This document shows, piece after piece, positions 6,114 through 58,548 of a DNA stretch of 64,000 nt. Position 1 is the first letter of the stretch. Each line of letters opens with the position of its first letter. The notes under the pieces are model-generated. The model was given only the letters and a program-made list of their open reading frames with translations, had not been told where the DNA came from and did no database searches. This DNA is from Candidatus Nomurabacteria bacterium (GTDB lineage: Bacteria; Patescibacteriota; Patescibacteriia; HK-STAS-PATE-3). The stretch lies in contig CP060223.1 in NCBI GenBank assembly GCA_023898465.1, positions 224,001 to 288,000 on the forward strand, written 5' to 3'. The position numbers were made by a program, and so were the translations under genes.

Positions 6114-9035
<2,922 letters not shown>

Positions 9036-42100: not shown

Positions 42101-42898
42101 TTAGTTGACGGAGGCGATCTCTTCATCAGGGATTGCGGCTATCAAGCGTCCGAGCGCCTTTTGCAGCGAAAGATTAGAGCGGGCTAAGCGTTCATCATAT
42201 CGGAAGAAGTGAAAGGGGATAGCAGAGGGGTCGGTCAACGCCATTTGTCCAAGCGCTCCAAGCTGCTGGAATACTGCCCCAAGATCGAGTTCGAGGTCGA
42301 ACAGGAGCTCCCAATCAATGCAAGATCGAAGCGCTTCCCAGGGTAGTGGCTCTTCCATGCAGCATGAGCGCCCGGCCAGCATTCTGACAAAGTGGCAGAG
42401 CCCAGGGTTGAAGAAGCTTTTTCTCCTTTGATCAGTCAGCAAGGTGCTTCTTGGGTCAAAGGGGTACACGGTGTCGTCCTCTCCCTGCATGAGCCATCCC
42501 TTGAGCAGCTCAAGATCAACCACGCTGGTGACCAAATCTTGGGTGGCGAGGGCCTTGCGATCAAAGCTCACGATGTCGCCCCAGGGGATCGGCAGACAGA
42601 TTGAGGCAACAAGTTCCACCCAAGCACCTAGTGTGTCTTGGCGATCCTCTGGGACAACCAAGAGAAAAGAATCAAGAGTTCTGGGAAGTGCCATAGCACC
42701 AAGGGCGGAGAGAAAGTTCCCGGCTTTTTTTCCTACAGCGTCGATGATGAGGCTTCGTATAGGCTCACCATCAGTATCTTCCAAGATGCTTTGAGAATCC
42801 TCAAGACTTGAGCAGACGGTGATGGTGTGGCAGTTGATCCGAGCTGCCAAATGGCGGGCTCGTTTCTGACTACCAGAAAAAACCAAGAGGTGTGCCAT
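42101..42898 (-). CDS. hypothetical protein (G+C-rich island gene)
   Basis: 265-aa ORF whose G+C-rich codon usage matches the island. No family recognised. Confidence 0.45.
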   Translation of the reverse strand: MAHLLVFSGSQKRARHLAARINCHTITVCSSLEDSQSILEDTDGEPIRSLIIDAVGKKAGNFLSALGAMALPRTLDSFLLVVPEDRQDTLGAWVELVASICLPIPWGDIVSFDRKALATQDLVTSVVDLELLKGWLMQGEDDTVYPFDPRSTLLTDQRRKSFFNPGLCHFVRMLAGRSCCMEEPLPWEALRSCIDWELLFDLELDLGAVFQQLGALGQMALTDPSAIPFHFFRYDERLARSNLSLQKALGRLIAAIPDEEIASVN

Positions 42899-42972
42899 AC
42901 TCAGACCTCCGTTGAGTTATGAAGGTGCTTCCTCCTATAGAGAAGTGTAGACGCATTGCGCATCTTCGACAA

Positions 42973-43391
42973 TACTTGACAACCCACTTCACAGGAGTAC
43001 ACTAAATGCACAATTGGTGGCGATCTCTGCCTGGCACTGACCAGGTTGTCCGGAGACGCCATGTTTTTGTATGCGCGTGTTCTTCCTCCTTGCCGCAGGG
43101 TGTAGCTCGGCTCCGCTCGCTACCCATTTCTCGGCATCGGTCTCTTTGCGATGATCGAAACGAAGAGCGTCTTTTTCTACTCTCCTGCAGGGGCGGTGCG
43201 GGAGCGCGGAATAGTTCCGGGCTTCATTTCCTCACATGAGGAAAGCGGCTTTGTTGCCGTTTTGCACCTTGAAATGCATGGAGGTTCGCCATGACTTGGC
43301 GTTTCCGACTCTTCCTGCTCATGGCCATCGCGTTGACCATGACACCCCTCGCTTTCATGACCGGCTGCCAGGAGCTGCCGACGGAGGGGGA
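42973..43391 (+). repeat. direct repeat copy A: promoter + 5' leader + signal-peptide cassette (partner at 46570..46894)
   Basis: Near-identical to copy B apart from one insertion of about 94 nt and scattered substitutions. It spans TTGACA through the first about 34 codons of the lipoprotein gene. Confidence 0.85.
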
Positions 43392-44028
43392 TTCACAGGA
43401 TCAAGTGGTTGAGAGTCCGGAAGCTCAACCCGGTCCAGCGATTCAGTCTACTGGGCCCGAATGGTATAATCAGGTCGTAAGTGAAGCAAAGTACACATTG
43501 TGCCAGCTTCGAAACGGCACATCGCATGAGGTCTATCAGGGTAAGGCTATGGGTGATTGGCCCTACCCACATCAAGGGGATTGTTGTAACGCCCTTGGTG
43601 TAGTCCGTCAATATATGTACGGTGGTGGCTCTCCAGGACCGCTTGGCGAATGGAATGGCTTCCAGCAAGGCGGTTGGTGCAAGTTCTTTGTCAACTTGGT
43701 GCTCTACCGCTCTAGCTATGGCTACCCGGGCGGACATTTGCTCTTGCCCACTTCTACGTATCGTTACAATAATCCACGCCCGGTTTCCGAAGCACAACCT
43801 GGATGGATCTTGCAGTCAGAAACACTACCTCATACTGCGATCGTAGTAGAACGACTAGGCGGTGGCTTGGATGTAATCGATTCAAACTGGATCGGAACTT
43901 ACAAGCGTCCGGACGGAAGTTATTACTACTCATATGCCATCGCAAGGCATGAAATCACAAATACGGAGTTGGATCGCTACGATTTCATGGCATATCGTCC
44001 GCATGAGGCGTGCGTGCTGCATAACTAG
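43291..44028 (+). CDS. lipoprotein with CHAP-like (cysteine, histidine-dependent amidohydrolase/peptidase) domain
   Basis: Signal peptide plus lipobox LAFMTG|C. QGDCCNALGVVRQY (Cys motif) and LPHTAIVVERLGGGLDVIDSNW (His motif) resemble the CHAP catalytic dyad. Confidence 0.55.
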   Translation: MTWRFRLFLLMAIALTMTPLAFMTGCQELPTEGDSQDQVVESPEAQPGPAIQSTGPEWYNQVVSEAKYTLCQLRNGTSHEVYQGKAMGDWPYPHQGDCCNALGVVRQYMYGGGSPGPLGEWNGFQQGGWCKFFVNLVLYRSSYGYPGGHLLLPTSTYRYNNPRPVSEAQPGWILQSETLPHTAIVVERLGGGLDVIDSNWIGTYKRPDGSYYYSYAIARHEITNTELDRYDFMAYRPHEACVLHN

Positions 44029-44101
44029 ATAGTGGGGGGTGCTGGAAAGTTTTTCAGTTCCCCCCACCTCCCACAAAGTCAATTATTTACTTCATAAGTA
44101 T

Positions 44102-44617
44102 ATGAAAAAAATCCAAATAGTCTTTCTCTTATTTTCAAGCATTGTTCTTGCGTCGGTGATTTTTTATTCCGGACATGCTATTTCATATAAAAATACAACC
44201 TACGGATATTCTTTTAGTACAATAAAAAAGTCTAATATTAAAGTTCTTGATCCAGCGCTTGTTCAAGTTTCAATTATAGGAGAAGAGGTTATTGAGGAGA
44301 GTCCAATAATAAACATATATGCTATTAAGTTGGAGCAAGATTCTTTGTCTGCAACCCAAGAACTTGAAACGTGGGTAGGGGAAGATCTTAATGGTTTCTC
44401 TGATATTAATATTCAGAGTACAACGACCGAAACAGAAAAAATAATTAACGTTACTTATACGGGAGGGGGGATGTCTGGAAGTATTAAATACGTCGGATTT
44501 TATGTTTTCAATCAGGAAGAAAAAACAATAATTAAGGTAGTAGCTTCTCAGTATAATGATAATATGGAATTGTTTGAGGCCTACAAAAAAATTCTTTCTT
44601 CCTTTCAGTTAATATAA
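44102..44617 (+). CDS. hypothetical membrane-anchored protein (AT-rich insert within the island)
   Basis: MKKIQIVFLLFSSIVLASVIFYSGH N-terminal anchor. 171 aa. Confidence 0.45.
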   Translation: MKKIQIVFLLFSSIVLASVIFYSGHAISYKNTTYGYSFSTIKKSNIKVLDPALVQVSIIGEEVIEESPIINIYAIKLEQDSLSATQELETWVGEDLNGFSDINIQSTTTETEKIINVTYTGGGMSGSIKYVGFYVFNQEEKTIIKVVASQYNDNMELFEAYKKILSSFQLI

Positions 44618-45255
44618 TGACCACCACTCATCGTCTCCTCATATTACTCATTGTCGTAGTTGCCGCAGGCTTTCTCTATCTTGGATTAAGATCAGATTCC
44701 TCCGATGTAACAACGACGAACAAAACAGTCAACAAAGATTTCCGTGAACTTGAAATGCTCAGTTCAGCTGGTCACAAGGTGTTTCAATCAGAGAATTATG
44801 ATTTCACCTATACGATTGATCATGGTGTTGACTGGAGCGTTAGCGAGGCTGCAGAGCCGACTTTGCTCACCACTTGGTTTTCTTTACCAAATCCAAATAG
44901 TGAAGAGGAAGAAAGAGATGATATTCCGAATGGGTTTAATACCTTTGAAAAAAATAGTTTTCGACTTGATGTATATCCTAACTCAGGTTCAGTAAGTCCA
45001 AATGGAGAAGCGGAGCTAAAAGATTGGTTAAAAAATGATCTTAATAGTGAGTATATTCCTGGAAGCTTTTTAACCTTATCCATTGCAAGAAACCGTTTAT
45101 TCAAAGTAGTTGATTTTCAGGGGATTGATGTGCGAGAGGCGCATTATTATCTATTTGGCTCTGCATTTGTATATGTCTTTTCAAGCGGTGATTTCACTGA
45201 GCAAGAAATGCGCGAGTTTATTAGCGGTTTTACCTACGAAAGAGCGCCTTTATAA
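44617..45255 (+). CDS. hypothetical membrane-anchored protein (AT-rich)
   Basis: Start overlaps the upstream stop (TAATG). N-terminal TM anchor. 212 aa. Confidence 0.45.
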   Translation: MTTTHRLLILLIVVVAAGFLYLGLRSDSSDVTTTNKTVNKDFRELEMLSSAGHKVFQSENYDFTYTIDHGVDWSVSEAAEPTLLTTWFSLPNPNSEEEERDDIPNGFNTFEKNSFRLDVYPNSGSVSPNGEAELKDWLKNDLNSEYIPGSFLTLSIARNRLFKVVDFQGIDVREAHYYLFGSAFVYVFSSGDFTEQEMREFISGFTYERAPL

Positions 45256-45462: not shown

Positions 45463-46470
45463 ATGAACCGCCTGTTTGTCGTACTCGCGCTGATCACCAT
45501 CGGGGCTCTGGGTTTTGTTGGCTGCGGCGGTAAGGACGCCGCTACGAAGCCGGAAGAAATCCGCAGTCCAGATCAGATCGTGCAGTCTGAGATTGTCTAT
45601 ACCGTGAACCCAGACTACTCAGGGGTGAATGTTTCGTGGAAAACAAACATCCCGACAGTTGGAAGGGTGTACTATGGTAGGACTCCTCAACCAACTGACT
45701 ACGTCATCGAGGAGGTGAGCACTACTCAACATTTGTTGTGTGCACCTCGACTCAGGGGAGATGCGCTCTTCTACTTCCAAGTGCAATCATCCTTTTCCGA
45801 GGAAGTGATTAGCGCTCGGGAACCGAGCGAAGGCGATACACTTCGCACCCCACGATGGGTTGATTGGTCTCCACCTACCGTAAGATGGGTCGATCCTCGA
45901 GAAGGCGCAATAAAGGGCGGGACGATTGATCTCACTGTTTCGGCAAACGAATACGTTGTCAACGGGGTGGTAGAGGTGAAATTCTTTATCGATGGCAGGG
46001 TCATCGCTGTAGTGACTGAACCCGATGACGGTGATAAGATCTTCGTCGTGCATGACTTCAATACTACCCAGCTCACCGATGGCTTGCATAGCTTTCACGC
46101 GTTGGCAACAGATGTAAACGGTAACAGAGAGTCAAGGGGAATTACGGTCGACATCGACAACTCGAAGCCGGTCATCTATCGATGGGATGCTCCGAGAAAT
46201 CAGCGGGAGATCGGGAATTCTATCAATTTGCGAGTGGTGGCTCAGGACTTTCGTGGTGAACACGTCGATGATGTGTACATCACCCTCGATGGTCAACCAT
46301 TTGCGAGGCTTGAGGTGTGTGAACTGCGAGCTAGCGGCGTAGGAGATGTGTGGTGTAGAGACGTTGATACGTCGACGCTGTCACCCGGTCAGCACTACTT
46401 CGGTGCCGTTTCAGTAGATCATGCTGGCAACGAGTCAGATCCGGTCTACATCGGCGTCATCAAGCAGTAG
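45463..46470 (+). CDS. lipoprotein with Ig-like/FN3-like beta-sandwich repeats (G+C-rich)
   Basis: Lipobox LGFVG|C. Repeated beta-strand-rich segments (VNVSWKTN...VYYGRTPQ, IDLTVSANE..., FHALATDVNGN..., FGAVSVDHAGNES) typical of Big/FN3 folds. Confidence 0.5.
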   Translation: MNRLFVVLALITIGALGFVGCGGKDAATKPEEIRSPDQIVQSEIVYTVNPDYSGVNVSWKTNIPTVGRVYYGRTPQPTDYVIEEVSTTQHLLCAPRLRGDALFYFQVQSSFSEEVISAREPSEGDTLRTPRWVDWSPPTVRWVDPREGAIKGGTIDLTVSANEYVVNGVVEVKFFIDGRVIAVVTEPDDGDKIFVVHDFNTTQLTDGLHSFHALATDVNGNRESRGITVDIDNSKPVIYRWDAPRNQREIGNSINLRVVAQDFRGEHVDDVYITLDGQPFARLEVCELRASGVGDVWCRDVDTSTLSPGQHYFGAVSVDHAGNESDPVYIGVIKQ

Positions 46471-46569
46471 CCTTTCCAGTCCGTCAGGAATCCAACAGAG
46501 CCTGGGATCATCGATCTCGGGCTCTTCTCTTTTTGATACGCTCCAGAATGAAAAAGTGAAGTTTACTAT

Positions 46570-46894
46570 TACTTGACAACCCACTTCACAGGAGTACACT
46601 AAATGCACAATTGGTGGCGATCTCTGCCTGGCACTGACCAGGATGTCTGGAGACGCCATGTTTTTGTATAGGCGTATTCCACCCTCCCTTGCCGTGGCGT
46701 TGGGGAGCGCGGAATAGTTCCGGGCTTCATTTCCTCACATGAGGAAAGCGGCTTTGTTGCCGTTTTGCACTTTGAAATGCATGGAGGTTCGCCATGACTT
46801 GGCGTTTCCGACTCTTCCTGCTCATGGCCATCGCGTTGACCATGACACCCCTCGCTTTCATGACCGGCTGTCAGGAGCTGCCGACGGAGGGGGA
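46570..46894 (+). repeat. direct repeat copy B of the promoter/leader/signal-peptide cassette
   Basis: See copy A. This copy lacks the segment of about 94 nt. Confidence 0.85.
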
Positions 46895-47492
46895 GACTTC
46901 GGTGATCTCTGATGAGTTGCCGGATGCTTCACCCTCAGCTCAGTCAAGCCCGATGACTTGGCCCTCTTCGATCCAGGATTTCAAACTCCCTTATGATGGG
47001 ATCCGGGATGCATGCGGGGGTCAGATTTGGAAGGTTGTTTGCGGGTACGGATGTGGTTATCATCACAACACAAACTACATGGCCGCCGCGTACCATTCGA
47101 TTGATCTTGTACGGCAGGATGCGCCGACCACTCATAGCGCAGTACTCGCTCCGGCGCGTGGCATCGTTTCGTTTGTCGGATGGAGGAATGGGTACGGTTG
47201 GTGCGTGGAGATGGATCATCGAAACGGCTGGAAGTCGCTTGTGGCCCATCTCGAAACGGATCCTTGGGAATTCGTCCATACCTATGACGACCTGCGGCAG
47301 GGGACTTTCCTGGGCTATGCAGGGAACAGCGGAGCGAGTACGACACCCCACATTCACTTCTCGGTGTGGCGGAACAACGTCACTCATACGCTCGATGGCG
47401 TATCGTTGATCAACCCGCGTCTAAATGGGCGATACAATTCCGGCAATGATTATGTTGCGCCACCGACGGGAAATCCGAACCCGATTCCTTAA
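46794..47492 (+). CDS. lipoprotein peptidase M23 family (LytM/lysostaphin-like peptidoglycan endopeptidase)
   Basis: Identical signal peptide and lipobox to the 43291 gene. HSIDLV (HxxxD) and TPHIHFSVW (HxH) are M23 zinc ligand motifs. Confidence 0.7.
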   Translation: MTWRFRLFLLMAIALTMTPLAFMTGCQELPTEGETSVISDELPDASPSAQSSPMTWPSSIQDFKLPYDGIRDACGGQIWKVVCGYGCGYHHNTNYMAAAYHSIDLVRQDAPTTHSAVLAPARGIVSFVGWRNGYGWCVEMDHRNGWKSLVAHLETDPWEFVHTYDDLRQGTFLGYAGNSGASTTPHIHFSVWRNNVTHTLDGVSLINPRLNGRYNSGNDYVAPPTGNPNPIP

Positions 47493-47668: not shown

Positions 47669-48682
47669 ATGAATCGTTTTTCTATCTTCATCGCAGTGTT
47701 CGTTCTTATCAGCGCAGTGGTTTATGCTTTCTTTTTTGCTACATTATTTGGGGAAAAGAAAGCTATTGAAGGAGTGCAGGGACCTGCTTTTATGTTTGCA
47801 ACCCTGCCTGACTCAGATGCATCTGCCGCGATAAGCATTTTTGAGATTCCTACAATGTCGAAGCGAAAGGCTGAAGACACATCTTTGCCAATGCATTTTC
47901 TTAAAAAACTAGGAGATCCGAGAGAGTATTTTGATCCCATACTTTCTTCAAGTGGTGCATATTTGGCTTTTAATCGTAATATTGGGGAGCCGAAACAGGA
48001 TAAGACAAATTTAGTAATACTTGCAGCTGACGGAAAAGAAAGGAGCGTGGAGAGCGGCTCTGCTGGAGATATAGGAATAGGAATGCTCACGCCCTTGCAG
48101 TGGAGTGCTGATGAAAAAACGCTCTACGCTTTTTATACACACGCAACTGAAGGTAATATCGTAGGCCTGGTGGCAATTGATGTGGCAACTTTAAGCCAAC
48201 AACGAATTGAAAAAATTGATGATCTACGTGTAAGTAACTACGTCTTTGATGAAGTCGGAAATACCTACGGTTTTGAACCGCACTATCGATTCCGCCCTGA
48301 AGACGAGGCTCAAACAACCTTTTATCGAATTTCTTTGACTAGTGGCGAAACAAAAAGCTTTACACTCCAGCAATCGAGTTTGGACGATCTCTTGACCGTA
48401 GATCCAAGCGGGAGATACCTCGTGTACGCAAACGGAGATGATTTTAATTCTCGTAACATTTGGATGTATGACATGGAAACCGGTGAGGAGCGCGCGTTGA
48501 CTGAAAATGCTGTTGTTAATGAAATTTTGCCCTGGAAAGATGGATATTTGGTATTTCTGGAGGAAAGTGTAAACACCCCCGCAGAAAAAACACTTGTATC
48601 ATACGATGTAAATTCTGGCATTCGCAAAGTTCTTTTAGAAAATGTTACAGGGACGTTCCGGCTTCTTGGTTGGTATCCCTAA
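47669..48682 (+). CDS. membrane-anchored PD40/TolB-like beta-propeller protein (paralog-type of 20627..21961)
   Basis: N-terminal TM helix. WSADEKTLYAF and DPSGRYLVYANGDD blades. Confidence 0.5.
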   Translation: MNRFSIFIAVFVLISAVVYAFFFATLFGEKKAIEGVQGPAFMFATLPDSDASAAISIFEIPTMSKRKAEDTSLPMHFLKKLGDPREYFDPILSSSGAYLAFNRNIGEPKQDKTNLVILAADGKERSVESGSAGDIGIGMLTPLQWSADEKTLYAFYTHATEGNIVGLVAIDVATLSQQRIEKIDDLRVSNYVFDEVGNTYGFEPHYRFRPEDEAQTTFYRISLTSGETKSFTLQQSSLDDLLTVDPSGRYLVYANGDDFNSRNIWMYDMETGEERALTENAVVNEILPWKDGYLVFLEESVNTPAEKTLVSYDVNSGIRKVLLENVTGTFRLLGWYP

Positions 48683-48940: not shown

Positions 48941-49600
48941 ATGTTAGGTTATCTTTTGCTCATTATATCGGTTGTAGAGTTTTTTATTGGCCTGTACCTT
49001 ATTTTTCGCTATGAAAAAAGCCAGGCAACAACATATTACGGTCTCTTTGCAATAAGTGTTGCGATCTATGTTGCCGCGAACGGTTTCGGATTTACCCGAG
49101 CTTCTGATAACGAGTTTATTTTTGAGCAACTTGCTTGGTTTGGCGGCTTACTTAGCGCCCCATTTATCCTTGGCTTCAGTTATAGCTTTCCTAGCCCTAA
49201 AAAATATCCCACTGAGCTATTTCCGTGGGTAATTTGGCCAGTAGTGTTATTTGGCGCAGGAATTTTTACTTCAAATATTTTCCTGGAGAAAACGTATATT
49301 TATTCCTTTGCCGAAGGCTACACTGCGCCAATCGGTGTCTTTTTCTGGTTCGCCATTGCAGTATTTGCGATGTATTGGATATGGGCAATACGAAACCTGC
49401 TGTATACGAGATTGCACACAAGCGGTTTTTATAGGAATTTTCTTACCATTGTGCTCATAGGGCTTTTTTCATCACTGCTTATTTCAGCAATTTTTGATAT
49501 TTACATTCCCTTAGTTTCAGTCACGCGCTACGGATATATTGGAGCATTATTCTCGTCTATTTGGCTGTTTACTACCGCGTATTTAATGGTGAGGAAGTAA
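48941..49600 (+). CDS. standalone 7TM membrane protein, paralog 1 (homologous to the HisKA_7TM-type N-terminal sensor module of the downstream histidine kinase)
   Basis: 219 aa, about 7 hydrophobic helices. Conserved blocks (N/R)xFLxIxLIGLxxSLL(I/V)S and GY(I/M)G(A/P)L(F/A)SSIWLF...YL(M/I)(V/L)RK are shared with the other paralogs and with HK residues about 190-230. Confidence 0.7.
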   Translation: MLGYLLLIISVVEFFIGLYLIFRYEKSQATTYYGLFAISVAIYVAANGFGFTRASDNEFIFEQLAWFGGLLSAPFILGFSYSFPSPKKYPTELFPWVIWPVVLFGAGIFTSNIFLEKTYIYSFAEGYTAPIGVFFWFAIAVFAMYWIWAIRNLLYTRLHTSGFYRNFLTIVLIGLFSSLLISAIFDIYIPLVSVTRYGYIGALFSSIWLFTTAYLMVRK

Positions 49601-49601
49601 G

Positions 49602-50261
49602 ATGATTGGATATATATTACTCATTATCTCAGTTGTTGAAGTAATACTCGGTTTTTATTTGATTTTTCGATATGTAAAAAGTCCAGCAACTATATATTAC
49701 GGCCTATTCGCGCTAAGTGTAGCACTCTATGTAGGTGCAAACGGGTATGGTTTTAGTCCGTTTTCAGAAAATGATATATGGCTGGAAATAATTGCCTGGA
49801 TTGGCGGGACCTTTACCGCTCCTTTTATTCTTGGCTTCAGTTACTCATTCCCTTATCCACGTAAGTCCAATAAGGAAATACTGTCTTTAGTTCTTAGTCC
49901 ACTCGTTTTTTTCTTCGTCGTAATACTTTTTTCTAATACTTTTGTAGATCATAATAGTGTTATCAGCTTTGATGAAGGATTTCAAAGACCTGTCGGGGAG
50001 TTACACTGGTTTGTATTATCAGTATTCTTTTTCTATTGGGTTTGGTCTTTTATTGAACTAGTAAAGAGTCGAAAAAAATCCGACGGCTTTAATAAGAATT
50101 TTCTTCTTATTTTAATTATAGGCTTAGTTTTTTCTTTGTTGGTTTCGGTATTTACTAACATCATTCATCCACTTGTCGATGTTTCAAAGTTAGGTTATAT
50201 GGGCCCCTTAGCCTCTTCAATCTGGCTATTTATTACTGGGTACTTGATATTGAGGAAGTAA
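49602..50261 (+). CDS. standalone 7TM sensor-module paralog 2
   Basis: 219 aa. Starts 1 nt after the paralog 1 stop, with an RBS aggaag. About 60% identical to paralog 1 by eye. Confidence 0.7.
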   Translation: MIGYILLIISVVEVILGFYLIFRYVKSPATIYYGLFALSVALYVGANGYGFSPFSENDIWLEIIAWIGGTFTAPFILGFSYSFPYPRKSNKEILSLVLSPLVFFFVVILFSNTFVDHNSVISFDEGFQRPVGELHWFVLSVFFFYWVWSFIELVKSRKKSDGFNKNFLLILIIGLVFSLLVSVFTNIIHPLVDVSKLGYMGPLASSIWLFITGYLILRK

Positions 50262-50932
50262 TGAACACCTTTCATTTAGTTTTACTTTTTACACTTTTCT
50301 TTATTCACGCGACTCTCGCAATATGGATGTTGCGTAGATATGTGCAGACGCTATCCATTCGTTATTACTCAGGCTTTTTATTTGGACTAGCACTTATTGC
50401 ACTATTAAATGGTTTATTGCTGTTATTTGGCGGTCAGGAGAGTCAAACAGTCCTTCATAAGATCGGCTTTATCTCAGGCACCTTCACTTTTGTGATGTTC
50501 TTTATGTTTAGTAAGTACTTTCCAATTTCTACTGCAAGACCAAACTCCCGCGACATTCTTTTTTGGGTAATTCCGATTACATTTTTTATTCCATTCATAC
50601 TTTTTAATCAGCAGTTTATCCAGTCTGTGATTATAGAAAATGGAATAAGTAAGCCTACATTTGGAGTCTGGTATACACCATTTATGTTAGTTTTGGCCAC
50701 CTTTGTTCTGGGGGCTATCTATAATCTCATACAGAAATATAAAATAACCACTGAACTTGAAATTAGGAAGAACATTAGAGACATTACGGCAGTATTTTTC
50801 GTATCAGGACTCCTTGGCTTTTTGTTGGACGTTGTGTTGCCAAGGTTTAATGTTTATACGGCACATTACTTTGCCATTGAATCTTCACTTTTTGTTGCGC
50901 TAACTACTGCAATTATTATTGCAAAGAAGTAA
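50261..50932 (+). CDS. standalone 7TM sensor-module paralog 3 (divergent)
   Basis: 223 aa. TAATG stop/start overlap with paralog 2. Confidence 0.65.
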   Translation: MNTFHLVLLFTLFFIHATLAIWMLRRYVQTLSIRYYSGFLFGLALIALLNGLLLLFGGQESQTVLHKIGFISGTFTFVMFFMFSKYFPISTARPNSRDILFWVIPITFFIPFILFNQQFIQSVIIENGISKPTFGVWYTPFMLVLATFVLGAIYNLIQKYKITTELEIRKNIRDITAVFFVSGLLGFLLDVVLPRFNVYTAHYFAIESSLFVALTTAIIIAKK

Positions 50933-50933
50933 G

Positions 50934-51605
50934 ATGAAAGAGTTTCTCATCATTGCAAATTATCTGGTTGGAATAGGGGAGTTGATGCTCGCTGGATATT
51001 TTTGGAAAACAAACAGCGGCAGCGCAATTCGGAAGGTGATGGTGTTGTTGGCGTTTTCGACTGGTATGTGGGTCATTTTTACCGGAACCTTTACCTACCG
51101 CTGGATTTTGCTTGATTACTTTGATCTCGGCATATCATTTGTATATTTCTTTGGAATTTTGTTCCTTACCGCCTTACTTCATTTAGTAATTCTCTTTCCT
51201 CACAAGATTTTCCCGTTTGATAGGCTACATACAGTTTTGTTGTATATTCCAACACTCATATTAGGTTTTGCCGCTTTTACTCCAGCGATAATTAAAGAAA
51301 ATATCACTCCGTCGAGCGGGTATACCACAAGTTATCCCGGACCAGCACATTGGATGTTTAATAGCTATCTTTTTCTCATGTATGCAATGGTGATAATCCT
51401 ACTCATTGTTAAGATCAAGCGTTTTGATGGATTTAGCAGAGATAACGCAAAAACTTTGCTTTGGGGTATTATTTTAGGCGGCCTACCCATCGTTTTCTTA
51501 GATTTGGTTTTGACAACTTTGGGCATCTACCCAAATGCTGCCGTTGCCAGCCTTTTCACAGTTGTCTGGCTTGGGTTTACTACTTACATAATTGTACGGA
51601 AATGA
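50934..51605 (+). CDS. standalone 7TM sensor-module paralog 4 (divergent)
   Basis: ATG 50934 lies 1 nt after the paralog 3 stop. The track ORF at 50919 uses an upstream TTG. C-terminus ...YIIVRK. Confidence 0.65.
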   Translation: MKEFLIIANYLVGIGELMLAGYFWKTNSGSAIRKVMVLLAFSTGMWVIFTGTFTYRWILLDYFDLGISFVYFFGILFLTALLHLVILFPHKIFPFDRLHTVLLYIPTLILGFAAFTPAIIKENITPSSGYTTSYPGPAHWMFNSYLFLMYAMVIILLIVKIKRFDGFSRDNAKTLLWGIILGGLPIVFLDLVLTTLGIYPNAAVASLFTVVWLGFTTYIIVRK

Positions 51606-52288
51606 ACGGAGAAATAGTATTTTTTGATTTAATTTTACTTAGCGTTGTTGGATTATTAGAATTAGCCTTTGGGATTTATTTAATAGTCCGTTATGTGAGG
51701 ACAAGTTCGATAGTATTTTTTGCACTTTTCGTTTTCTTTCTTTCTTTGTGGGTGCTTACAAATGCGGCTGCTTTCGTAATACCAATACATAATGTCTTCT
51801 TTGATATTGATTCAAAGTTGAGTTTTGTTTTTGCAATATTACTTTTTCCAGCGCTATACTTATATGTAATTAATTTTCCCATCCCTACAATATTAATAAA
51901 TTGGCGTTTAATACTTTTTGTGTTTACTGCGCCAATACTTCTTAGTACAATGATTTTAGGGTCGGGAACGGTTGTATTTGGATTTGATAAATTGATAGAG
52001 AATCAGCCAACTATATTTGGAGAAGCTTTTTGGGCCTATTCTTTTTATATGTTGTTCATGTATGCAATTATTTTATTTGAATTAATAAGGCAGATTAATA
52101 AGTCCAAGGGTTCTCACAGATGGTATGCACAAATTTTATTTTTTGCTGTTTTCATTTCTGGCGCAATAGGGCTATTATTTAATCTTGTTCTGCCTTCGAT
52201 GTTCGATATTAGAATTGCTTATTGGATAGCCCCATCTAGTTCAATTATTTGGCTTGCTCTTGTTTGGTGGGCGACGCAGAGGAAATAA
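51602..52288 (+). CDS. standalone 7TM sensor-module paralog 5
   Basis: ATGA start/stop overlap with paralog 4. Conserved YLIVRYVRTS and C-terminal ...WWATQRK. Confidence 0.65.
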   Translation: MNGEIVFFDLILLSVVGLLELAFGIYLIVRYVRTSSIVFFALFVFFLSLWVLTNAAAFVIPIHNVFFDIDSKLSFVFAILLFPALYLYVINFPIPTILINWRLILFVFTAPILLSTMILGSGTVVFGFDKLIENQPTIFGEAFWAYSFYMLFMYAIILFELIRQINKSKGSHRWYAQILFFAVFISGAIGLLFNLVLPSMFDIRIAYWIAPSSSIIWLALVWWATQRK

Positions 52289-52290
52289 TT

Positions 52291-52959
52291 ATGGATTATG
52301 GTGTATACTTATTATTAGTTATTGCGGGCCTAGAACTTTGGTTGACAATATACATATTTACTCGCTACCAAAGAACAAAAGCTATTTTTTTCTTTGGACT
52401 CTTTACTGCTTGTGTGACTGGATGGGTGCTAACTAATTCTATTCCGCTTCTTTTTTCCTATTCAAGTTGGCAATCTGATTTTTTGCAACGCCTCTCGTTT
52501 TCTTTTGCTGCATTTATTTTTCCTTTTCTTTATTATTATATTCTTTTACATCCATTTCCAAGCATTGATATCAACAAGCGATTCATATTATTCACATCCC
52601 TCCCGGCCTTCTTTGTTTCTATTGCCACTCTCTTTGATAAAAACTTTGTTATAGGATTCTATGATACCTCAGTAAGGGCAACAATATACGGCGACTCTTT
52701 TTGGATGTATGCGGTAGTTATGTTGCTATTTGCAATTCTTATTCCTGTGGAAATAATTTTAAAAAGAAGAAGACTGGATGGATATTATCGCTACCAATTC
52801 AAATTATTATTCAGCGCCTATTTGTTTTCAGCGGCAGTAGGATTACTAATTAATTTAATATTGCCATATTTTTTCGACTTAAAAATTAACTATTGGCTTG
52901 GGCCCGCGTCATCGATTATTTGGGTGAGTATGGTTTGGTGGGTTATTAATAGAAGGTAA
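52291..52959 (+). CDS. standalone 7TM sensor-module paralog 6
   Basis: Starts 2 nt after the paralog 5 stop. C-terminal WLGPASSIIWVSMVWWVINRR matches the HK GFGPLSTLFLLFFISYAIIRHR block. Confidence 0.65.
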   Translation: MDYGVYLLLVIAGLELWLTIYIFTRYQRTKAIFFFGLFTACVTGWVLTNSIPLLFSYSSWQSDFLQRLSFSFAAFIFPFLYYYILLHPFPSIDINKRFILFTSLPAFFVSIATLFDKNFVIGFYDTSVRATIYGDSFWMYAVVMLLFAILIPVEIILKRRRLDGYYRYQFKLLFSAYLFSAAVGLLINLILPYFFDLKINYWLGPASSIIWVSMVWWVINRR

Positions 52960-52981
52960 TGTTTAATTGCGATTTTCAAAA

Positions 52982-53641
52982 ATGACAATAGGACATGTAG
53001 TTGAAGAATTTAAAAGTCGGTATATTAAAAGACAACTAGATCATAATTTTATTGTTTTAGAGACTCAAAATAACAACCAACTAAATTTATCATATAGATT
53101 AAGATACGAAGTATATTGTCTAGAATGTAAATATTTAGACGTGAATAATTATCCCAATAGGTCTGAAAAGGATGAGTATGATGATTGTTCAATACATTTC
53201 ATCGCAATAAATAAAAAGACAAAAAATGTTGTTGGCACAATTCGACTTATTAAACGCACTAATAGGAATTTGCCAATAGAGCATGATTTTGGAATTTCTC
53301 TGAATGGATCAATTAGTTCTAAAAAAGTTGTGGAGATTTCTAGACTAGCGGTTGATAAAAAATTTAGGAAGTCGAGTTTAAAGCATCCAAGTATTATGTT
53401 AGGTTTATTAAAAGCATGCTATAGATACGCCGAAGAAAATGGAATTGCAATGTTTGTAGCGGCAATAGATCAAAATGTATATAATATGTTAAAAAAGTTT
53501 CGTTTTTCATTTAATTTATTAGGGGAACCAAAACATTATATGGGTTCAATCTCAGTACCCGTGTTAATTGATATCGAAAAAGAATCGCAGTGGTTAAAAA
53601 TAGTAAATCCTGGACTATGGACATTTCTTTCAAGCAATTAG
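52982..53641 (+). CDS. GNAT-fold N-acyltransferase resembling LuxI/FeeM-type autoinducer / N-acyl amino acid synthases
   Basis: LRYEVYCLECKYL...EKDEYDDCSIHFIAINKKTKNVVGTIRLI...LPIEHDFGISL...VVEISRLAVDKKFRK follows the R.EVF...E.D.YD...(Y/H)(L/F).A......G..RL.P......E..F...E.SR.AV pattern of the Autoind_synth/Acetyltransf_5 families. Confidence 0.5.
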   Translation: MTIGHVVEEFKSRYIKRQLDHNFIVLETQNNNQLNLSYRLRYEVYCLECKYLDVNNYPNRSEKDEYDDCSIHFIAINKKTKNVVGTIRLIKRTNRNLPIEHDFGISLNGSISSKKVVEISRLAVDKKFRKSSLKHPSIMLGLLKACYRYAEENGIAMFVAAIDQNVYNMLKKFRFSFNLLGEPKHYMGSISVPVLIDIEKESQWLKIVNPGLWTFLSSN

Positions 53642-54276
53642 CTCATAAAATTGTATTATTCTATTTAAGACGGGCTAGCCACAAAAAATACCTAACATTT
53701 AGCTTTAGCGATCTTATTATACTCTGTCCCCCAAACGTGTTCCCGCCTAATTCGTTTACCACTGACCTAATGGCTAAGTGGCTAGTAAACGAAGAGATGG
53801 AAGGTAAACAGGTTTTAGAGATGGGTTGTGGAAGTGGATACATTTCGATTATTGCCGCACGAAAAGGGGCAAAAGTAATTGCAAGCGACATCAGCCCTAT
53901 CGCGGTTGATGCCGCAAAAATCAATACCATAATAAATAAGATAAAAAATGTCGAATGTTATTGCTCGGACTTATTTTCTAACTTAGAAGGAAAGTTTGAT
54001 TTAATTCTCTTCAACGCACCTTTTTTTCATGGAGAACCCACTTCTTTATTAGATAACAATTGGATGAGTAAGGATGGGGAGGTGGTCAGTAAATTTTTTA
54101 AAGACGCAAGAGAATATATTAATCCAATGGGGAAGGTAGTTATTACTAGTTCGACTCTAGTTAATCAAGATGCTCTGAAAATATTAATTAAAGAAAGCGG
54201 ATTTAATATTGAAAACGTGAAAACAAAAAATATTATTATTGAAAAATTTTTCTTGTATGAATGTAGAGCTTTTTAA
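53617..54276 (+). CDS. class I SAM-dependent methyltransferase, small-domain (HemK/Mtq2-like)
   Basis: The VFPPNSFTTDL entry motif resembles the Mtq2/HemK N-terminal motif. GxGxG is VLEMGCGSGYISI, followed by an acidic loop ASDIS and DLILFNAPFF (NPP(Y/F)-like). The start overlaps the GNAT gene by 25 nt. Confidence 0.7.
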   Translation: MDISFKQLAHKIVLFYLRRASHKKYLTFSFSDLIILCPPNVFPPNSFTTDLMAKWLVNEEMEGKQVLEMGCGSGYISIIAARKGAKVIASDISPIAVDAAKINTIINKIKNVECYCSDLFSNLEGKFDLILFNAPFFHGEPTSLLDNNWMSKDGEVVSKFFKDAREYINPMGKVVITSSTLVNQDALKILIKESGFNIENVKTKNIIIEKFFLYECRAF

Positions 54277-55021
54277 TAGAAATCAACCATTTATAACTAA
54301 AAAAGAACAAAAAATTCTCACAAAACAGAAAGTTTGTTTTATTGGATGTGGTCTTGCAAGTCAAGCCGCACTCCTTATTGCCAGGACAGGTATTGGAAAA
54401 ATAGTACTTTGTGATGGAGACAAGGTCGAGTTGAGTAATCTTAACAGGCAAGCATTTGACATTGGTGATATTGGAGAAAACAAAGCAGAAAGCTTAATGA
54501 GAAAGATATTAAGCATCAATTCAAATATTGAAGTGGAGCAGTATCCGGTTTTTTTAAAAAAATCGATTATTTCAAATGTAATAAAAGATTCAGATATTGT
54601 AGTGAGCACAGTTGATGCGGGTCCTTTATATTTTGAAATTCAGGAATATATTAATAAAAAAGGCATTATGGGAATATTCCCCATGAATATTGCCTTTGGA
54701 TCACTCGTATTCGTATCAAAAAATGGAAAGGGTGATTTTAAATCGTTATTTGGGGAGAAATTACCTGAAAATAATTCTGAATTTTTTTATCAACTTTACA
54801 ATAAACTTAAACAAAATGTACCAAGCTATTTATCTCCTCATATTGAAATCTTATTAAGTGGATTTAAAACAAACAGTCCAATTCCACAGCTAGGATTAAC
54901 GACTTTACTTACCGCATCTTTGATTACTGAGATAATACTGGCTGGGAACAGGGCTGAGCAATTATTGTTAACTCCAAGATTCTATTATTTTGATATTCGT
55001 GAATTCGTTCGAAATGGATAA
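54257..55021 (+). CDS. ThiF/MoeB/E1-like adenylyltransferase
   Basis: Rossmann VCFIGCGLASQ followed by DGDKVELSNLNRQ, the ThiF signature. The core is 254 aa with no rhodanese or peptide-clamp extension. Confidence 0.75.
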   Translation: MNVELFNRNQPFITKKEQKILTKQKVCFIGCGLASQAALLIARTGIGKIVLCDGDKVELSNLNRQAFDIGDIGENKAESLMRKILSINSNIEVEQYPVFLKKSIISNVIKDSDIVVSTVDAGPLYFEIQEYINKKGIMGIFPMNIAFGSLVFVSKNGKGDFKSLFGEKLPENNSEFFYQLYNKLKQNVPSYLSPHIEILLSGFKTNSPIPQLGLTTLLTASLITEIILAGNRAEQLLLTPRFYYFDIREFVRNG

Positions 55022-57785
55022 ATTGCTAATCCCACAAAATTTAGCACTTATTATATTGCTCTTCGGATATTTAAGTCTGATAATTCTTCTTTTGAGACGC
55101 GAGAACACAAGTAGTAGATTATTTGGTGCTACCGTTATTACTCTCTCTCTTTGGATATTATCAATTTTACTTTTAAATATCAGCTCCTCAAAAGAAGAAA
55201 TTTTATTCTTTTCGCGATCGTCATTTATCGGGCCAATTATTCTCATACCAACATTCCTTCTTTTTTCTTGGTATTTTCCGAAAAAAACTATACATCTAAG
55301 GAAAAGTATTATTATTGTCGTTTCTTTAACGGCATGCTTCTTTTTAATTGCGACGTTTACGCCGTATGTAATTCAAGATGTCACAATAAAAGTAGGTGAA
55401 GGAGTCAGTCTAACCTATCAACTTGGAACACTATATTTTTTCCAATTTATTTTTTTAGCATTCTCATTACTTTATTCTTTTTTTATTCTTTATAAAAAAT
55501 ATAAAAAATCAAAAGGCCTAGAAAAATTACAAATTAGATATCTTTTTCTTGGCACCGTTATTACTGCAGTATTGACCTTGAGTACTAACGTAATTTTACC
55601 AATTTTTAATTTTTCATCTCTTGCTGGATTTGGCCCTCTTAGTACTCTATTTCTCTTATTTTTTATTTCATATGCCATCATCCGCCACCGCCTCCTCGAC
55701 ATCCGTCTTGTTATCACGCGTTCCTTAATTTATTTTTTCCTTATCCTGTTCGTCGCAGGATCATTTACTGGAATTACCTTACTCGCAAAGTTATTATTTG
55801 AAGAATTTGTTGGTGAAATAACCGCTACAATACTTGTTTCTCTCATCATCGTTATTGGTTTCGAGCCATTGAAGCGATGGGTCTCTCGTTCTACTGACTC
55901 GGTTTTTTATAAGGCAAAAATTGACTACGCTGATGTGTTGCGGGAAATCAGCGAAATTATTAACCGTGAAATTGTCCTGGATCCGCTCGTCACCTCCATC
56001 AGCGCCACGCTTGAGAGTAGGCTCAAGCTCAAGCACGCGGGCATTGCATTGAAAAGCGCCAAGGGGGATTTTGTTGAATACATAAACCACGATCACTTTG
56101 ATCCCAAAACCTTTTCCAGCCGATCCGGTATGATCGGATTCTTACGTTTCACATCTCGTATCACCATTTTAGAATCGCTCGAGCGCAAAATTCAGGACAC
56201 GAGCGAAGGGGACGAATTAAAAGAGTTGAAGCGATCGCGCGAGGAAATGGAAACGAACCACATTGCCTTAGCTGCTCCGATTGTGGCGCAAGGCAAATTC
56301 AACGCAGTCCTCATCCTGGGGCCGAAACTTTCCGGTGATAGCTTCTCGACCGAAGAGTTGAAGATGATTGAAACGTTGACTCCGCAGATCGGATCAGCGA
56401 TTGAGAAATCCATGCTCTTCGAAGAGGTGAAGAACTTCTCCAGTCAATTAAAGGTGAAAGTTGATGAGGCGACAAAGGAGTTGAAAGAGCGCAATCGTTT
56501 CCTTGGCGCTTTGCAGGATATCACGAGCACCATTACGCACTCTCTTGATTACAAAAAAGTAGGACAGGACATTGTGGACGGAGTAGCCAAGAAGCTCGGT
56601 TACATCGGTGCCGTGCTCCTGCTCTATGATCCAAAGACTGGCCAGTCATGGGCTGAGGCAATTACGCAAACGCCGGTTACTCGCGCGGCAATGAAATTAC
56701 TGCCCAAGCCGGTGAACGAATACCATGGGCACGTGGATGAGAATTCCATGACCGACCAAGTTATTTTGACTGGTGAAATGCGCGAAAGTGATTCACTAGC
56801 TGAATTCTTAGCACCGGCCGTGCCTAAAGCTTTTTGTTTCGCCATGCAGAAGTTGATTCGCGCAAAGTATATTGTGGCAGTGCCAATCTATGCCGAGGGT
56901 GAAATTCTCGGTGCCTTGGTTTTTGTGCTCGGGAAGAAGAAAGAGGAGATCAGTAGTCAGGAGCGGGCTATGATGATCGCTTTAGGTGACCAGGCCGGAA
57001 TCGTGCTGCACAATATTAAACTCTTTGATCGCATCCAGGATACGAATAAGCAGTTGGAGCAGGCGAATGAACACTTGAAGCAGCTTGATCAAGCTAAGTC
57101 GGAATTCGTCTCCATTGCCTCGCACCAATTACGCACGCCGATGACTGGCATTATGGGCTATCTTTCCATGATGGTGCAGGGGGATTTCGGTAAAATGGAG
57201 CCGGAGCACACCAAACTGCTGACTGAATTGTTGAGTGAGAGTCAGCGCATGATTCGTCTCATCAACCTCTTCTTGAACGTCTCAAAGATTGAGTCAGGTA
57301 AGATGACGATTAACAAGCAGCCGACGCAGATTAAGGATCTCATTGACCAACAGATTAAGGATCAGAAAAAGCCAGCCGAGGATAAAGGATTGGTGCTGAA
57401 AGTGGAAGTTGATAAAGAGCTGCCGATAATTGAAGCTGACGGTGATAAGCTCATGAACGTGGTGCAGAACCTGATTGATAACGCTATCAAATATACAGAG
57501 CGGGGAAGCGTGACTGTTCGCGCCTTTCAGACCGATGGCCATATCCAGGTAGAAATTCAAGACACTGGCGTTGGTATTAAGCGCGAAGATGTGCATGAAC
57601 TCTTTGGTAAGTTTGTGCGCGGGTCTGGCATTGCGCAGATCAATCCTGATGGCTCCGGTCTCGGACTCTTTATTGCCAAGTCAATTGTGGAAATGCACGG
57701 CGGTAAGATTTGGGTAGAATCAGAAGGTGAAGGGAAAGGTACTAAATTCGCATTCACGATACCAATTACACAGCCGAAAAAATGA
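54990..57785 (+). CDS. sensor histidine kinase: N-terminal 7TM (HisKA_7TM-like) sensor, GAF domains, HisKA, HATPase_c
   Basis: N-terminal about 230 aa are hydrophobic and homologous to the six upstream paralogs. H-box SIASHQLRTPMTGIMGY. N/G1/G2 boxes NLIDNAIKYT, DTGVGI and GSGLGL. ATG 55014 would give an ATGGATAA start/stop overlap with the E1-like gene. Confidence 0.85.
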   Translation: MIFVNSFEMDKLLIPQNLALIILLFGYLSLIILLLRRENTSSRLFGATVITLSLWILSILLLNISSSKEEILFFSRSSFIGPIILIPTFLLFSWYFPKKTIHLRKSIIIVVSLTACFFLIATFTPYVIQDVTIKVGEGVSLTYQLGTLYFFQFIFLAFSLLYSFFILYKKYKKSKGLEKLQIRYLFLGTVITAVLTLSTNVILPIFNFSSLAGFGPLSTLFLLFFISYAIIRHRLLDIRLVITRSLIYFFLILFVAGSFTGITLLAKLLFEEFVGEITATILVSLIIVIGFEPLKRWVSRSTDSVFYKAKIDYADVLREISEIINREIVLDPLVTSISATLESRLKLKHAGIALKSAKGDFVEYINHDHFDPKTFSSRSGMIGFLRFTSRITILESLERKIQDTSEGDELKELKRSREEMETNHIALAAPIVAQGKFNAVLILGPKLSGDSFSTEELKMIETLTPQIGSAIEKSMLFEEVKNFSSQLKVKVDEATKELKERNRFLGALQDITSTITHSLDYKKVGQDIVDGVAKKLGYIGAVLLLYDPKTGQSWAEAITQTPVTRAAMKLLPKPVNEYHGHVDENSMTDQVILTGEMRESDSLAEFLAPAVPKAFCFAMQKLIRAKYIVAVPIYAEGEILGALVFVLGKKKEEISSQERAMMIALGDQAGIVLHNIKLFDRIQDTNKQLEQANEHLKQLDQAKSEFVSIASHQLRTPMTGIMGYLSMMVQGDFGKMEPEHTKLLTELLSESQRMIRLINLFLNVSKIESGKMTINKQPTQIKDLIDQQIKDQKKPAEDKGLVLKVEVDKELPIIEADGDKLMNVVQNLIDNAIKYTERGSVTVRAFQTDGHIQVEIQDTGVGIKREDVHELFGKFVRGSGIAQINPDGSGLGLFIAKSIVEMHGGKIWVESEGEGKGTKFAFTIPITQPKK

Positions 57786-58216
57786 AACAGGTAAGGGGGA
57801 AACAACCAAAACGCATCCTACTTGTCGAGGACGAGCCGCTCTTAGCAACGATGTATATGTTGGCGTTGCAGCAACGAGTAAAGGCTGAGGTGTACGGGGC
57901 TAAGACACGCGAAGAAGCGGAGCGCATTATTGAGCGTGTGAAGCCGGATTTAGTGCTGCTTGATCTCATGATTCCCTCGATTACCATCCAAGACACGGAG
58001 CAGGATTTTCATCATCCAGTAGGGCTGCAATTCTTAGCCCAAATTCGGAAGAGTCCAAAGACGCGTTCAATCAAGGTAATGATTCTCTCCAACCTTGATG
58101 CGGATGAGCAACGCAAGCGGGCCATTGATTTAGGTGCCGAGGATTACCTATTAAAAGCCAGTCTGCAGCCGCACGCGATTGTGGAAAAGGTAAAGCATAG
58201 TTTAGGGATAAAATAA
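57782..58216 (+). CDS. single-domain response regulator (receiver only)
   Basis: RILLVEDEPLL...DLVLLDLMIP...K receiver motifs. ATGA overlap with the HK stop. No output domain. Confidence 0.85.
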   Translation: MKQVRGKQPKRILLVEDEPLLATMYMLALQQRVKAEVYGAKTREEAERIIERVKPDLVLLDLMIPSITIQDTEQDFHHPVGLQFLAQIRKSPKTRSIKVMILSNLDADEQRKRAIDLGAEDYLLKASLQPHAIVEKVKHSLGIK

Positions 58217-58333
58217 GCCAGTCAATAATCTCATCCTTGACAGAGCCGGTGGTTTTTGTATACTTTCTGGCCCTGTTCTTTCCCATCGCGAATATCGGCA
58301 ACGGCCTCATTCTTAACATGTTTGGGAGGCCGT

Positions 58334-58531
58334 ATGTCGATTGCGTTTACTCCCACTGAGCTTATTCTCCTCGGAGGATTTCTCGTCTGGATCATGGCCC
58401 AAATCTATGCTCCAATGAAAGGTCGCCGCAAAGCTGTCAGCTTCGGCGCCATCGAGATTGTCTTCCTGCTCGTGGGTCTCGCGGTATTGCTCCTCGGAGC
58501 AATCACCCTTGCACAGAATCCTGCCTTCTAG
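58334..58531 (+). CDS. putative small two-TM membrane protein
   Basis: A 65-aa ORF from ATG 58334 with two hydrophobic helices. A TTGACA-16-TATACT promoter lies at about 58231-58262 and a terminator overlaps the 3' end. Confidence 0.3.
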   Translation: MSIAFTPTELILLGGFLVWIMAQIYAPMKGRRKAVSFGAIEIVFLLVGLAVLLLGAITLAQNPAF

Positions 58532-58548
58532 GCGGGATTCTTTTTTTA
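58510..58548 (+). terminator. intrinsic terminator (gaatcctgcc...ggcgggattc + TTTTTTT)
   Basis: GC-rich inverted repeat followed by a 7-T run. Confidence 0.5.

Follow-up and report, generated by a model that had tools for sequence, protein, structure and literature searches.

The stretch of DNA described here, below called the window, comprises 64,000 nucleotides of a Candidatus Nomurabacteria genome (GenBank assembly GCA_023898465.1, contig CP060223.1, positions 224,001 to 288,000) and contains, at 52982-55021, three overlapping open reading frames (ORFs) on the + strand that encode a GNAT-type acyltransferase, a methyltransferase and a ThiF-like adenylating enzyme. According to the ORF calls, these genes are placed between six tandem genes for stand-alone seven-transmembrane (7TM) proteins and a two-component system consisting of a 7TM sensor histidine kinase and a response regulator (Table 1). 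The same locus with identical gene calls is present in an independent Logan assembly contig. Two terminator-like hairpins bracket a possible transcription unit, of which an M23 peptidase gene would be the first gene. Here, we describe the families to which the encoded proteins belong, the recurrence of the gene set in other genomes and its base composition, and we weigh the functions that these point to. The system is best grouped with the small-molecule pathways that combine an N-acyltransferase with a ThiF-like enzyme, of which OxzAB is the closest characterised relative of the trio in the window.

Table 1. Features of the cluster, with positions in the window.
Feature	Position	Strand	Remarks
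Terminator-like hairpin	46497-46525		just upstream of the M23 gene
Promoter-like site	46573-46600		just upstream of the M23 gene
M23 peptidase lipoprotein gene	46794-47492	+	Peptidase_M23 2e-18; probable first gene of the transcription unit
Tandem array of six stand-alone 7TM genes	48941-52959	+	about 220 aa each; upstream of the GNAT gene
7TM copy 1	48941-49600	+	paralogue of the kinase sensor
7TM copy 2	49602-50261	+	paralogue of the kinase sensor
7TM copy 3	50261-50932	+	paralogue of the kinase sensor
7TM copy 4	50934-51605	+	paralogue of the kinase sensor
7TM copy 5	51602-52288	+	paralogue of the kinase sensor
7TM copy 6	52291-52959	+	paralogue of the kinase sensor
GNAT gene	52982-53641	+	ATG start; alternative TTG start at 52967
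Methyltransferase gene	53617-54276	+	25 nt overlap with the GNAT gene
ThiF-like adenylating enzyme gene	54257-55021	+	20 nt overlap with the methyltransferase gene
Sensor histidine kinase gene	55014-57785	+	8 nt overlap with the ThiF gene
Response regulator gene	57782-58216	+	ATGA start; 4 nt overlap with the kinase stop codon
Terminator-like hairpin	58515-58541	+	12-bp stem followed by a T-run; consensus match only

The enzymes and the two-component system

The GNAT protein is a predicted N-acyl amino acid synthase of the FeeM/OxzA/LuxI superfamily. It matches the Pfam families FeeM (1.3e-15; 58 bits vs a cutoff of 27), Acetyltransf_5 (1e-14) and Autoind_synth (2.3e-12; 47.3 bits vs a cutoff of 24), and it scores above the cutoff of NCBIfam TIGR03694 (139.6 vs 111.95 bits), the family of PEP-CTERM/exosortase-associated acyltransferases that act as N-acyl amino acid synthases. 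The equivalog models for acyl-homoserine lactone (AHL) synthases fail (NF052393, 44.3 vs 250 bits; NF010408, 40.3 vs 292 bits), the model of the aminolipid N-acyltransferase OlsB reaches 28.6 bits at a cutoff of 350, and the profile search returned no RimI match and Acetyltransf_1 below its cutoff. The AlphaFold model of the protein (pLDDT 91.7) has FeeM as its best structural match in the PDB (2g0b; E 1e-10), followed by the AHL synthases BjaI, TofI, LasI and RpaI. In alignments of 31 and 36 sequences, residues E118, S120 and R121 of the E-x-S-R motif, which contains the conserved general-base Glu, are invariant; R41, D64, R88 and P98 are likewise invariant in the family, and E62 and D67 nearly so. 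When homologues were sought by word matching, the GNAT sequence retrieved nothing but itself, and a HMMER search of 1.8 billion representatives gave 2411 relatives. The names given to relatives by JGI are either "N-acyl amino acid synthase of PEP-CTERM/exosortase system" or "N-acyl-L-homoserine lactone synthetase".

The ThiF-like protein consists of 254 aa, with PF00899 (3.8e-29) as its only Pfam match. Its best NCBIfam names are ThiF/MoeB models, all equivalog scores of which are below their cutoffs (98.8/159, 87.4/275, 79.2/152 and 52.7/377). The motifs for ATP binding and adenylation are intact (GCGLAS, DGDKVELSNLNRQ, NKA and D120). Cysteines occur only at residues 27, 31 and 52, and since none follows residue 52 the protein lacks both the zinc-binding CxxC motifs and the crossover-loop cysteine. 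No ThiS/MoaD-like ORF of 55-120 aa with a GG end is found on either strand of the 64-kb window. The closest solved relative is AclA of Tenacibaculum discolor, released in 2025 under the title "AclA from Tenacibaculum discolor in complex with substrate" (PDB 9egb, 9egc and 9egd), which aligns over residues 5-244 (9egb; phmmer E 3e-21; Foldseek TM 0.85); next, well behind, come PaaA, E. coli ThiF and MccB. R8 and N9 of an N-terminal R-N motif and Q211 of a C-terminal P-x-Q motif are invariant across sets of 11 and 25 ThiF sequences. Both motifs are common to four aligned groups that form one subfamily: the kinase-linked ThiF proteins of the Candidate Phyla Radiation (CPR), a GNAT-ThiF fusion, those encoded next to GNATs in loci of the PEP-CTERM type, and the AclA clade. 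The GNAT-linked ThiF proteins all fall in this AclA-like subfamily. Matches from a genome scan in Aliivibrio, Rheinheimera and SAR86 were set aside, as they cover the Rossmann part only and have other neighbours. The AclA-clade genes of Bacteroidota have surroundings of their own: in two loci the ThiF gene is convergent to a gene for a PAS-LuxR-type (GerE) regulator of about 252 aa (L009, 8001-9502; L010, 8001-9507), and in Chryseobacterium-like contigs (L144, 7311-16000) it ends a class I lanthipeptide cluster, beside Acetyltransf_3 GNATs.

The protein encoded between these two is a class I SAM-dependent enzyme of the MTS/HemK2-like group (Pfam MTS, 1.3e-19) and probably an N-methyltransferase; its gene is a lineage-specific accessory gene. 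It passes the HemK2/MTQ2 family TIGR00537 (108.8 vs a cutoff of 87 bits) and fails the bacterial PrmC model (68.8 vs 199); its motif IV reads N-A-P-F, where NPPY is the feature of the HemK2/MTQ2 protein glutamine methyltransferases. Its closest sequence matches in the PDB are the N-methyltransferases GenN, RsmC and PrmA. Part of what the sequence-only reading had claimed for the trio is borne out: the LuxI/FeeM-like, SAM methyltransferase and ThiF/E1-like assignments are correct, the domain matches being well outside the range of chance; neither a housekeeping RimI-type acetyltransferase nor an ordinary ThiF/MoeB with a ThiS or MoaD partner in the window came to light; and the three genes, which overlap as given in Table 1, are translationally coupled, as is the kinase gene that follows.

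The kinase combines a HisKA_7TM sensor domain (6.7e-16) with two GAF domains, HisKA (8.4e-16) and HATPase_c (6.7e-29). The response regulator consists of a receiver (Response_reg, 3.8e-16) and has no output domain. The products of the array resemble sensor domains without a kinase: the first copy matches HisKA_7TM (2.3e-8), tblastn and alignment relate the copies to one another and to the N-terminus of the kinase, and every copy terminates in RK, KK or RR at the point where the kinase runs into its linker helix. Copies 1 and 2 are 53% identical, copies 5 and 6 40%. Two ideas about these sensors were rejected. Active cassette switching among the paralogues finds no long DNA repeats, the longest being 69 nt at 74% identity; and a PrsK-like sensor is not indicated, as the kinase N-terminus and the 7TM paralogues match no PEP-CTERM kinase model and give only a weak match to the LIC10906 membrane protein.

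Recurrence and base composition

Relatives of the GNAT are repeatedly joined to activating or tailoring enzymes. One protein is a fusion of a FeeM-type GNAT with ThiF (P0088), four are fusions of a class I methyltransferase with such a GNAT (P0077, P0081, P0112 and P0128), and two are tandem GNATs (P0093 and P0143). In a survey of 79 metagenomic loci with GNAT relatives (L065-L143), an AclA-like ThiF lies within about 1-3 kb of the GNAT in 14, and a PaaK/F390/GH3-like adenylate-forming enzyme directly downstream of it in another 15; the two partners are mutually exclusive, since none of the 79 has both. When the survey is narrowed to the 27 loci that extend 2.5 kb or more to each side, 17 have a ThiF, an adenylating partner or a kinase. 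The order in L074 is TPR protein, GNAT, GNAT, ThiF and PEP-CTERM protein, and in L072 the ThiF is paired with a short-chain dehydrogenase. Adjacency or fusion of a methyltransferase and a GNAT is seen in L089, L114, L133 and L142.

In at least eight loci from CPR, Chloroflexota and unclassified bacteria, such enzymes are encoded directly upstream of a HisKA_7TM kinase on the same strand. The order GNAT, ThiF, kinase, found in the window, is shared by the Patescibacteria loci L004, L005 and L012, which also have an M23 peptidase gene and a stand-alone 7TM gene, and by L073. The order ThiF, adenylating enzyme (about 510-533 aa), kinase, response regulator occurs in L002 and L017, L008, L013 (Saccharibacteria) and L011 (Dehalococcoidaceae), so that ThiF and the adenylating enzyme do co-occur in kinase-linked loci without a GNAT. 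A GNAT alone precedes the kinase in L103, and in L142 a methyltransferase-GNAT fusion stands between an OmpR-type response regulator and a HisKA_7TM kinase. The adenylating enzyme of the ThiF-kinase loci carries the ANL motifs TSGxxG, YGxTE and GRxD, and that of L011 passes the GH3_M, GH3_C and GH3 cutoffs. Taken across loci, the partners are paired as GNAT with ThiF, GNAT with adenylating enzyme, and ThiF with adenylating enzyme, which fits two roles: amide formation by a GNAT or GH3-like enzyme, and carboxylate activation by a ThiF or adenylating enzyme. An M23 gene again accompanies the module in L008, and in L004 and L005, where it is 45% identical, it immediately precedes the GNAT gene. 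The stand-alone 7TM gene upstream of the module in L004 and L005 differs in called length between the two samples (368 vs 475 aa), and the 425-aa fusion of L142 is part of a string of overlapping genes (6425-10558) beside a penicillin-binding protein (PBP) transpeptidase and a Mur ligase.

The enzymes and the sensor domain of the kinase also appear to be passed on together, as a cassette with a base composition of its own. From 49600 to 55900 of the window, the GC content at third codon positions (GC3) is 0.22-0.43, compared with 0.44-0.55 elsewhere, and this island contains five of the six 7TM paralogues (0.28-0.43), the GNAT (0.22), methyltransferase (0.33) and ThiF (0.24) genes and, of the kinase gene, the membrane domain only (0.27). 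Within the kinase gene GC3 is 0.10-0.33 as far as codons ~290-300 (nt ~55.9 kb), where the membrane domain ends, and then leaps to 0.5-0.7; the cytoplasmic part is at 0.55, the response regulator gene at 0.54 and other genes at 0.44-0.50. As the gene for a P-type ATPase, also a membrane protein, has a GC3 of 0.50, the low values are not due to membrane proteins as such. A break inside the kinase gene is found again in L004 (GNAT 0.28, ThiF 0.20, kinase N-terminus 0.33, remainder 0.56) and L002 (ThiF 0.21, adenylating enzyme 0.28, kinase N-terminus 0.26, remainder 0.48), and is weak or absent in L008, L011 and L013.

A candidate pathway and its rivals

Several known systems resemble parts of this arrangement. 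OxzAB, which the sequence-only reading had passed over, couples an N-acyltransferase to a ThiF-like enzyme to give oxazolones, and occurs in Pseudoalteromonas rubra and about 50 Proteobacteria (de Rond, Asay and Moore, 2021; reviewed in PMC12596934). OxzA makes N-decanoyl-tyrosine from decanoyl-CoA, and OxzB, a ThiF-nitroreductase, needs ATP to turn this into the oxazolone; the products were described as labile and as possible signals, with an unclear biological role (de Rond, Asay and Moore; bioRxiv 10.1101/2020.06.11.147165). As in OxzAB, the N-acyltransferase gene of the window lies upstream of the ThiF-like gene on the same strand, and by description the predicted activity would follow the same course, from an N-acyl amino acid through ATP-dependent adenylation of its carboxylate to cyclisation. 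Unlike OxzB, the ThiF of the window stands alone without a nitroreductase domain, so no conjugated arylidene oxazolone is expected, and the methyltransferase gene between the two genes, the translational coupling to a 7TM kinase and the CPR host have no counterpart in OxzAB. With FeeM and the PEP-CTERM/exosortase-associated N-acyl amino acid synthases (Craig, Cherry and Brady, 2011, as cited in PMC11631085), the GNAT shares the TIGR03694 membership, the FeeM fold and the E-x-S-R motif, and an AclA-like ThiF partner is found in a PEP-CTERM locus too (L074); the partners in the window differ in being a methyltransferase, a ThiF and a 7TM kinase, and no PEP-CTERM/exosortase genes are present among the ORFs annotated around the cluster. 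AclA resembles the window protein as a ThiF-like protein without an extra domain and with both the R-N and P-x-Q motifs, whereas the Bacteroidota members of its clade adjoin PAS-LuxR regulators or lanthipeptide genes and not FeeM-type GNATs or 7TM kinases.

In comQXPA of Bacillus and agrBDCA of Staphylococcus, the genes that make the signal immediately precede the gene of a polytopic membrane histidine kinase, and in the comQXP and agrBDC specificity cassettes the variable or foreign stretch runs into this kinase gene and stops where the sensor part meets the cytoplasmic part. The compositionally distinct segment of the window ends at the same place. Those signals are ribosomal peptides, whereas a lipoamino acid derivative is predicted here, and what is seen in the window is a discontinuity in GC3, not strain pherotypes. 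In CPR, 18 LuxI homologues adjacent to sensory kinases have been put forward as possibly forming complete quorum-sensing systems (Bernard et al., 2020; PMC7567580). These share with the window a LuxI-superfamily gene next to a membrane kinase; they were classed as AHL synthases, and ThiF, methyltransferase or adenylating partners, fusions and a compositional cassette were not described. The bare adjacency of LuxI and kinase genes in CPR is therefore not new, and the earlier description of the layout as unusual for such a genome was overstated; the accompanying view holds, in which a 7TM kinase and a receiver are dedicated to a set of small-molecule enzymes and wired to it, and the arrangement recurs in other genomes. 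New as far as we could find are the conserved partnership with an AclA-like ThiF, the use of adenylating enzymes and methyltransferases as alternative partners, the fusions, the occurrence across CPR, Chloroflexota and PEP-CTERM loci, the placement within HisKA_7TM operons and the compositional cassette.

The reading we favour, tentatively and at slightly less than even chances, is that the window encodes an OxzAB-type two-step small-molecule pathway, with additional tailoring, embedded in a two-component operon, and that an activated or cyclised, methylated N-acyl amino acid made by this pathway acts as a membrane signal. From the family memberships, gene order, fusions and composition observed, we infer the following chemical steps and relation of ligand to receptor. 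Going by its family, the GNAT would acylate the amine of an amino acid, with a fatty acyl or another acyl group, to yield an N-acyl amino acid. The ThiF-like enzyme would then use ATP to adenylate the carboxylate of this compound, as suggested by the precedents of OxzB, TcdA, MccB and PaaA together with the GNAT-ThiF fusions and synteny. The acyl-adenylate may be captured by another nucleophile or close into a ring, which could be an oxazolone (azlactone) or, with certain side chains, a lactone or imide. As the cluster has no nitroreductase gene, the product would be saturated, reactive and short-lived, unlike the conjugated tyrazolones. The methyltransferase might act as an accessory enzyme that N-methylates the amino acid or the product. 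Finally, gene order and composition suggest that the hydrophobic, labile product could partition into the membrane and be read by the HisKA_7TM domain of the downstream kinase, which would signal to the receiver-only regulator, with the six 7TM paralogues possibly serving as co-receptors or buffers.

A number of points weigh against this pathway. For all proteins of this clade, product, substrate and ligand are predictions from sequence. The acyl donors of the family are acyl-ACP and acyl-CoA, and many CPR bacteria are thought unable to make these. The likeness to OxzA and OxzB is one of description and not of sequence comparison, the ThiF domain of OxzB included. The ThiF-like protein is only ~25-28% identical to AclA, literature searches for 9EGB and AclA found no publication on the reaction of AclA, and since genes of the AclA clade lie beside lanthipeptide genes and PAS-LuxR regulators, these enzymes could act on peptides. 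The methyltransferase type of the window is absent from every other locus of this kind; those fused to GNATs elsewhere belong to a different class I subtype (25% identity, E 4e-4). The low-GC3 island is a sign of shared history and not of shared function, and a comparison of the window and L004 kinases gives no sharp drop in identity confined to the sensor part, a profile that is not decisive. Adjacency to a kinase, lastly, fits a regulated output equally well as a signal source.

This last point leads to a different explanation, rather unlikely in our view, in which the enzymes are the regulated output and make or modify a structural aminolipid or another envelope component in the manner of OlsB or GlsB, while the kinase senses the state of the membrane or envelope and controls the operon including the M23 peptidase. 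The GNAT superfamily does include OlsB, a PlsC-type acyltransferase gene lies directly upstream of ThiF in L013 as an OlsA/GlsA partner would, M23 peptidases recur nearby, L142 adjoins a PBP and a Mur ligase, and relatives in Proteobacteria-like contigs are found within PEP-CTERM/exosortase envelope loci (e.g. L074). However, the match to the OlsB model is weak and far below its cutoff, ATP-dependent activation of the ThiF type is not part of any known aminolipid pathway, the regulator is a receiver without a DNA-binding output domain, and the position of the enzymes inside two-component operons, between response regulator and kinase in L142 and coupled to the kinase in the window, is typical of synthase-receptor pairs. 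Classical quorum sensing, with the GNAT as a true LuxI-type synthase that makes an AHL from SAM and the kinase as its receptor, we hold to be very unlikely. It would agree with the Autoind_synth score, with the AHL synthases among the best structural matches, with the conserved LuxI-like residues R41, D64, D67, R88, E118, S120 and R121, and with the proposal made for the CPR LuxI homologues next to kinases (PMC7567580). Yet the AHL equivalogs fail whereas TIGR03694 is passed, FeeM is the top structural match, and LuxI needs no ThiF or adenylating partner, while such partners are the rule in this clade; nor does the cluster encode a LuxR-type receptor (a protein with GerE or Autoind_bind), the receptor candidate nearby being the histidine kinase.

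The ThiF-like enzyme might instead adenylate the C-terminus of a peptide or protein, either in a microcin C-like pathway for ribosomally synthesised and post-translationally modified peptides or as a protein-conjugating E1, with the GNAT and methyltransferase tailoring the product or giving self-immunity. In the PDB, MccB and PaaA rank next behind AclA, the lanthipeptide clusters of Chryseobacterium-like contigs are closed by AclA-clade genes, peptides, proteins or tRNA are the substrates of nearly every ThiF-like enzyme characterised (PMC12596934), and the combination of a ThiF-like adenylating enzyme with a GNAT does recall MccB and MccE, as the sequence-only reading had suggested. That suggestion fared poorly. 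MccB aligns with the ThiF-like protein only from its residue 112, so that the peptide clamp is missing from the 254-aa protein, which has no RRE domain either; the GNAT is of the FeeM type and not of the MccE/RimL type; neither the window (ORFs of 55-120 aa ending in GG) nor the operon gaps (tiny ORFs ending in Asn) hold a plausible MccA-like or other precursor; and no protease or exporter is encoded in the cluster. We therefore give a peptide or protein substrate only a very slim chance. Mere adjacency of housekeeping genes, namely a RimI-like acetyltransferase, a release-factor or rRNA methyltransferase and a cofactor ThiF/MoeB, has next to no probability left. The methyltransferase does pass the HemK2/MTQ2 cutoff and the best NCBIfam names of the ThiF are ThiF/MoeB, but the corresponding equivalogs are far below cutoff, as is PrmC, zinc CxxC motifs, ThiS/MoaD in the window and a RimI match are lacking, and fusion proteins and recurrent synteny argue against chance; family scores and conserved synteny effectively refute this explanation.

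If the OxzAB-type pathway is accepted, its embedding in a two-component operon points to a testable receptor for the products of N-acyl amino acid synthases and OxzAB-type enzymes. A wider proposal, which we consider quite unlikely as it stands, is that N-acyl amino acids, once activated or cyclised, serve CPR bacteria and certain other phyla as membrane-borne autoinducers, with a 'dialect' cassette that recombines inside the kinase gene. Swapped between genomes as such a cassette would be the synthase genes, for a GNAT plus a ThiF, a PaaK/GH3-like enzyme or both and in some cases a methyltransferase, together with the HisKA_7TM sensor domain that matches them. The HisKA_7TM domain is widespread in bacteria and archaea, and the literature found mentions no ligand for it. 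If true, the dialect cassette would provide the first ligand class for these sensors and the first signalling chemistry to be defined in CPR bacteria, and the orphan pathways of N-acyl amino acid synthases and oxazolones would gain a biological role. For the host-dependent CPR bacteria, chemical signalling of their own has so far been predicted from homology alone (PMC7567580). OxzB is the sole ThiF-like enzyme reviewed as acting on a small molecule (PMC12596934), a class that would be widened considerably by an AclA-like subfamily linked to GNATs across phyla.

Surrounding features

Outside the cluster, the window has a region at 14000-16000 in which GC reaches up to 0.57, compared with ~0.47 around it; long ORFs overlap there on opposite strands (14254-15516 on the + strand and 14725-15621 on the - strand), with no match in Pfam or Rfam. 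Genes of 265, 245, 192, 212 and 337 aa without a Pfam match are located at 42101-45255 and 47669-48682. This run adjoins the gene of a secreted Ig-domain protein (45463-46470) and the M23 peptidase gene, and may encode surface or secreted proteins under control of the two-component system. Between the response regulator gene and the downstream hairpin lies a gene for a 65-aa membrane protein with two helices (58334-58531), near which a promoter-like site scores 11/12 (58237-58264).

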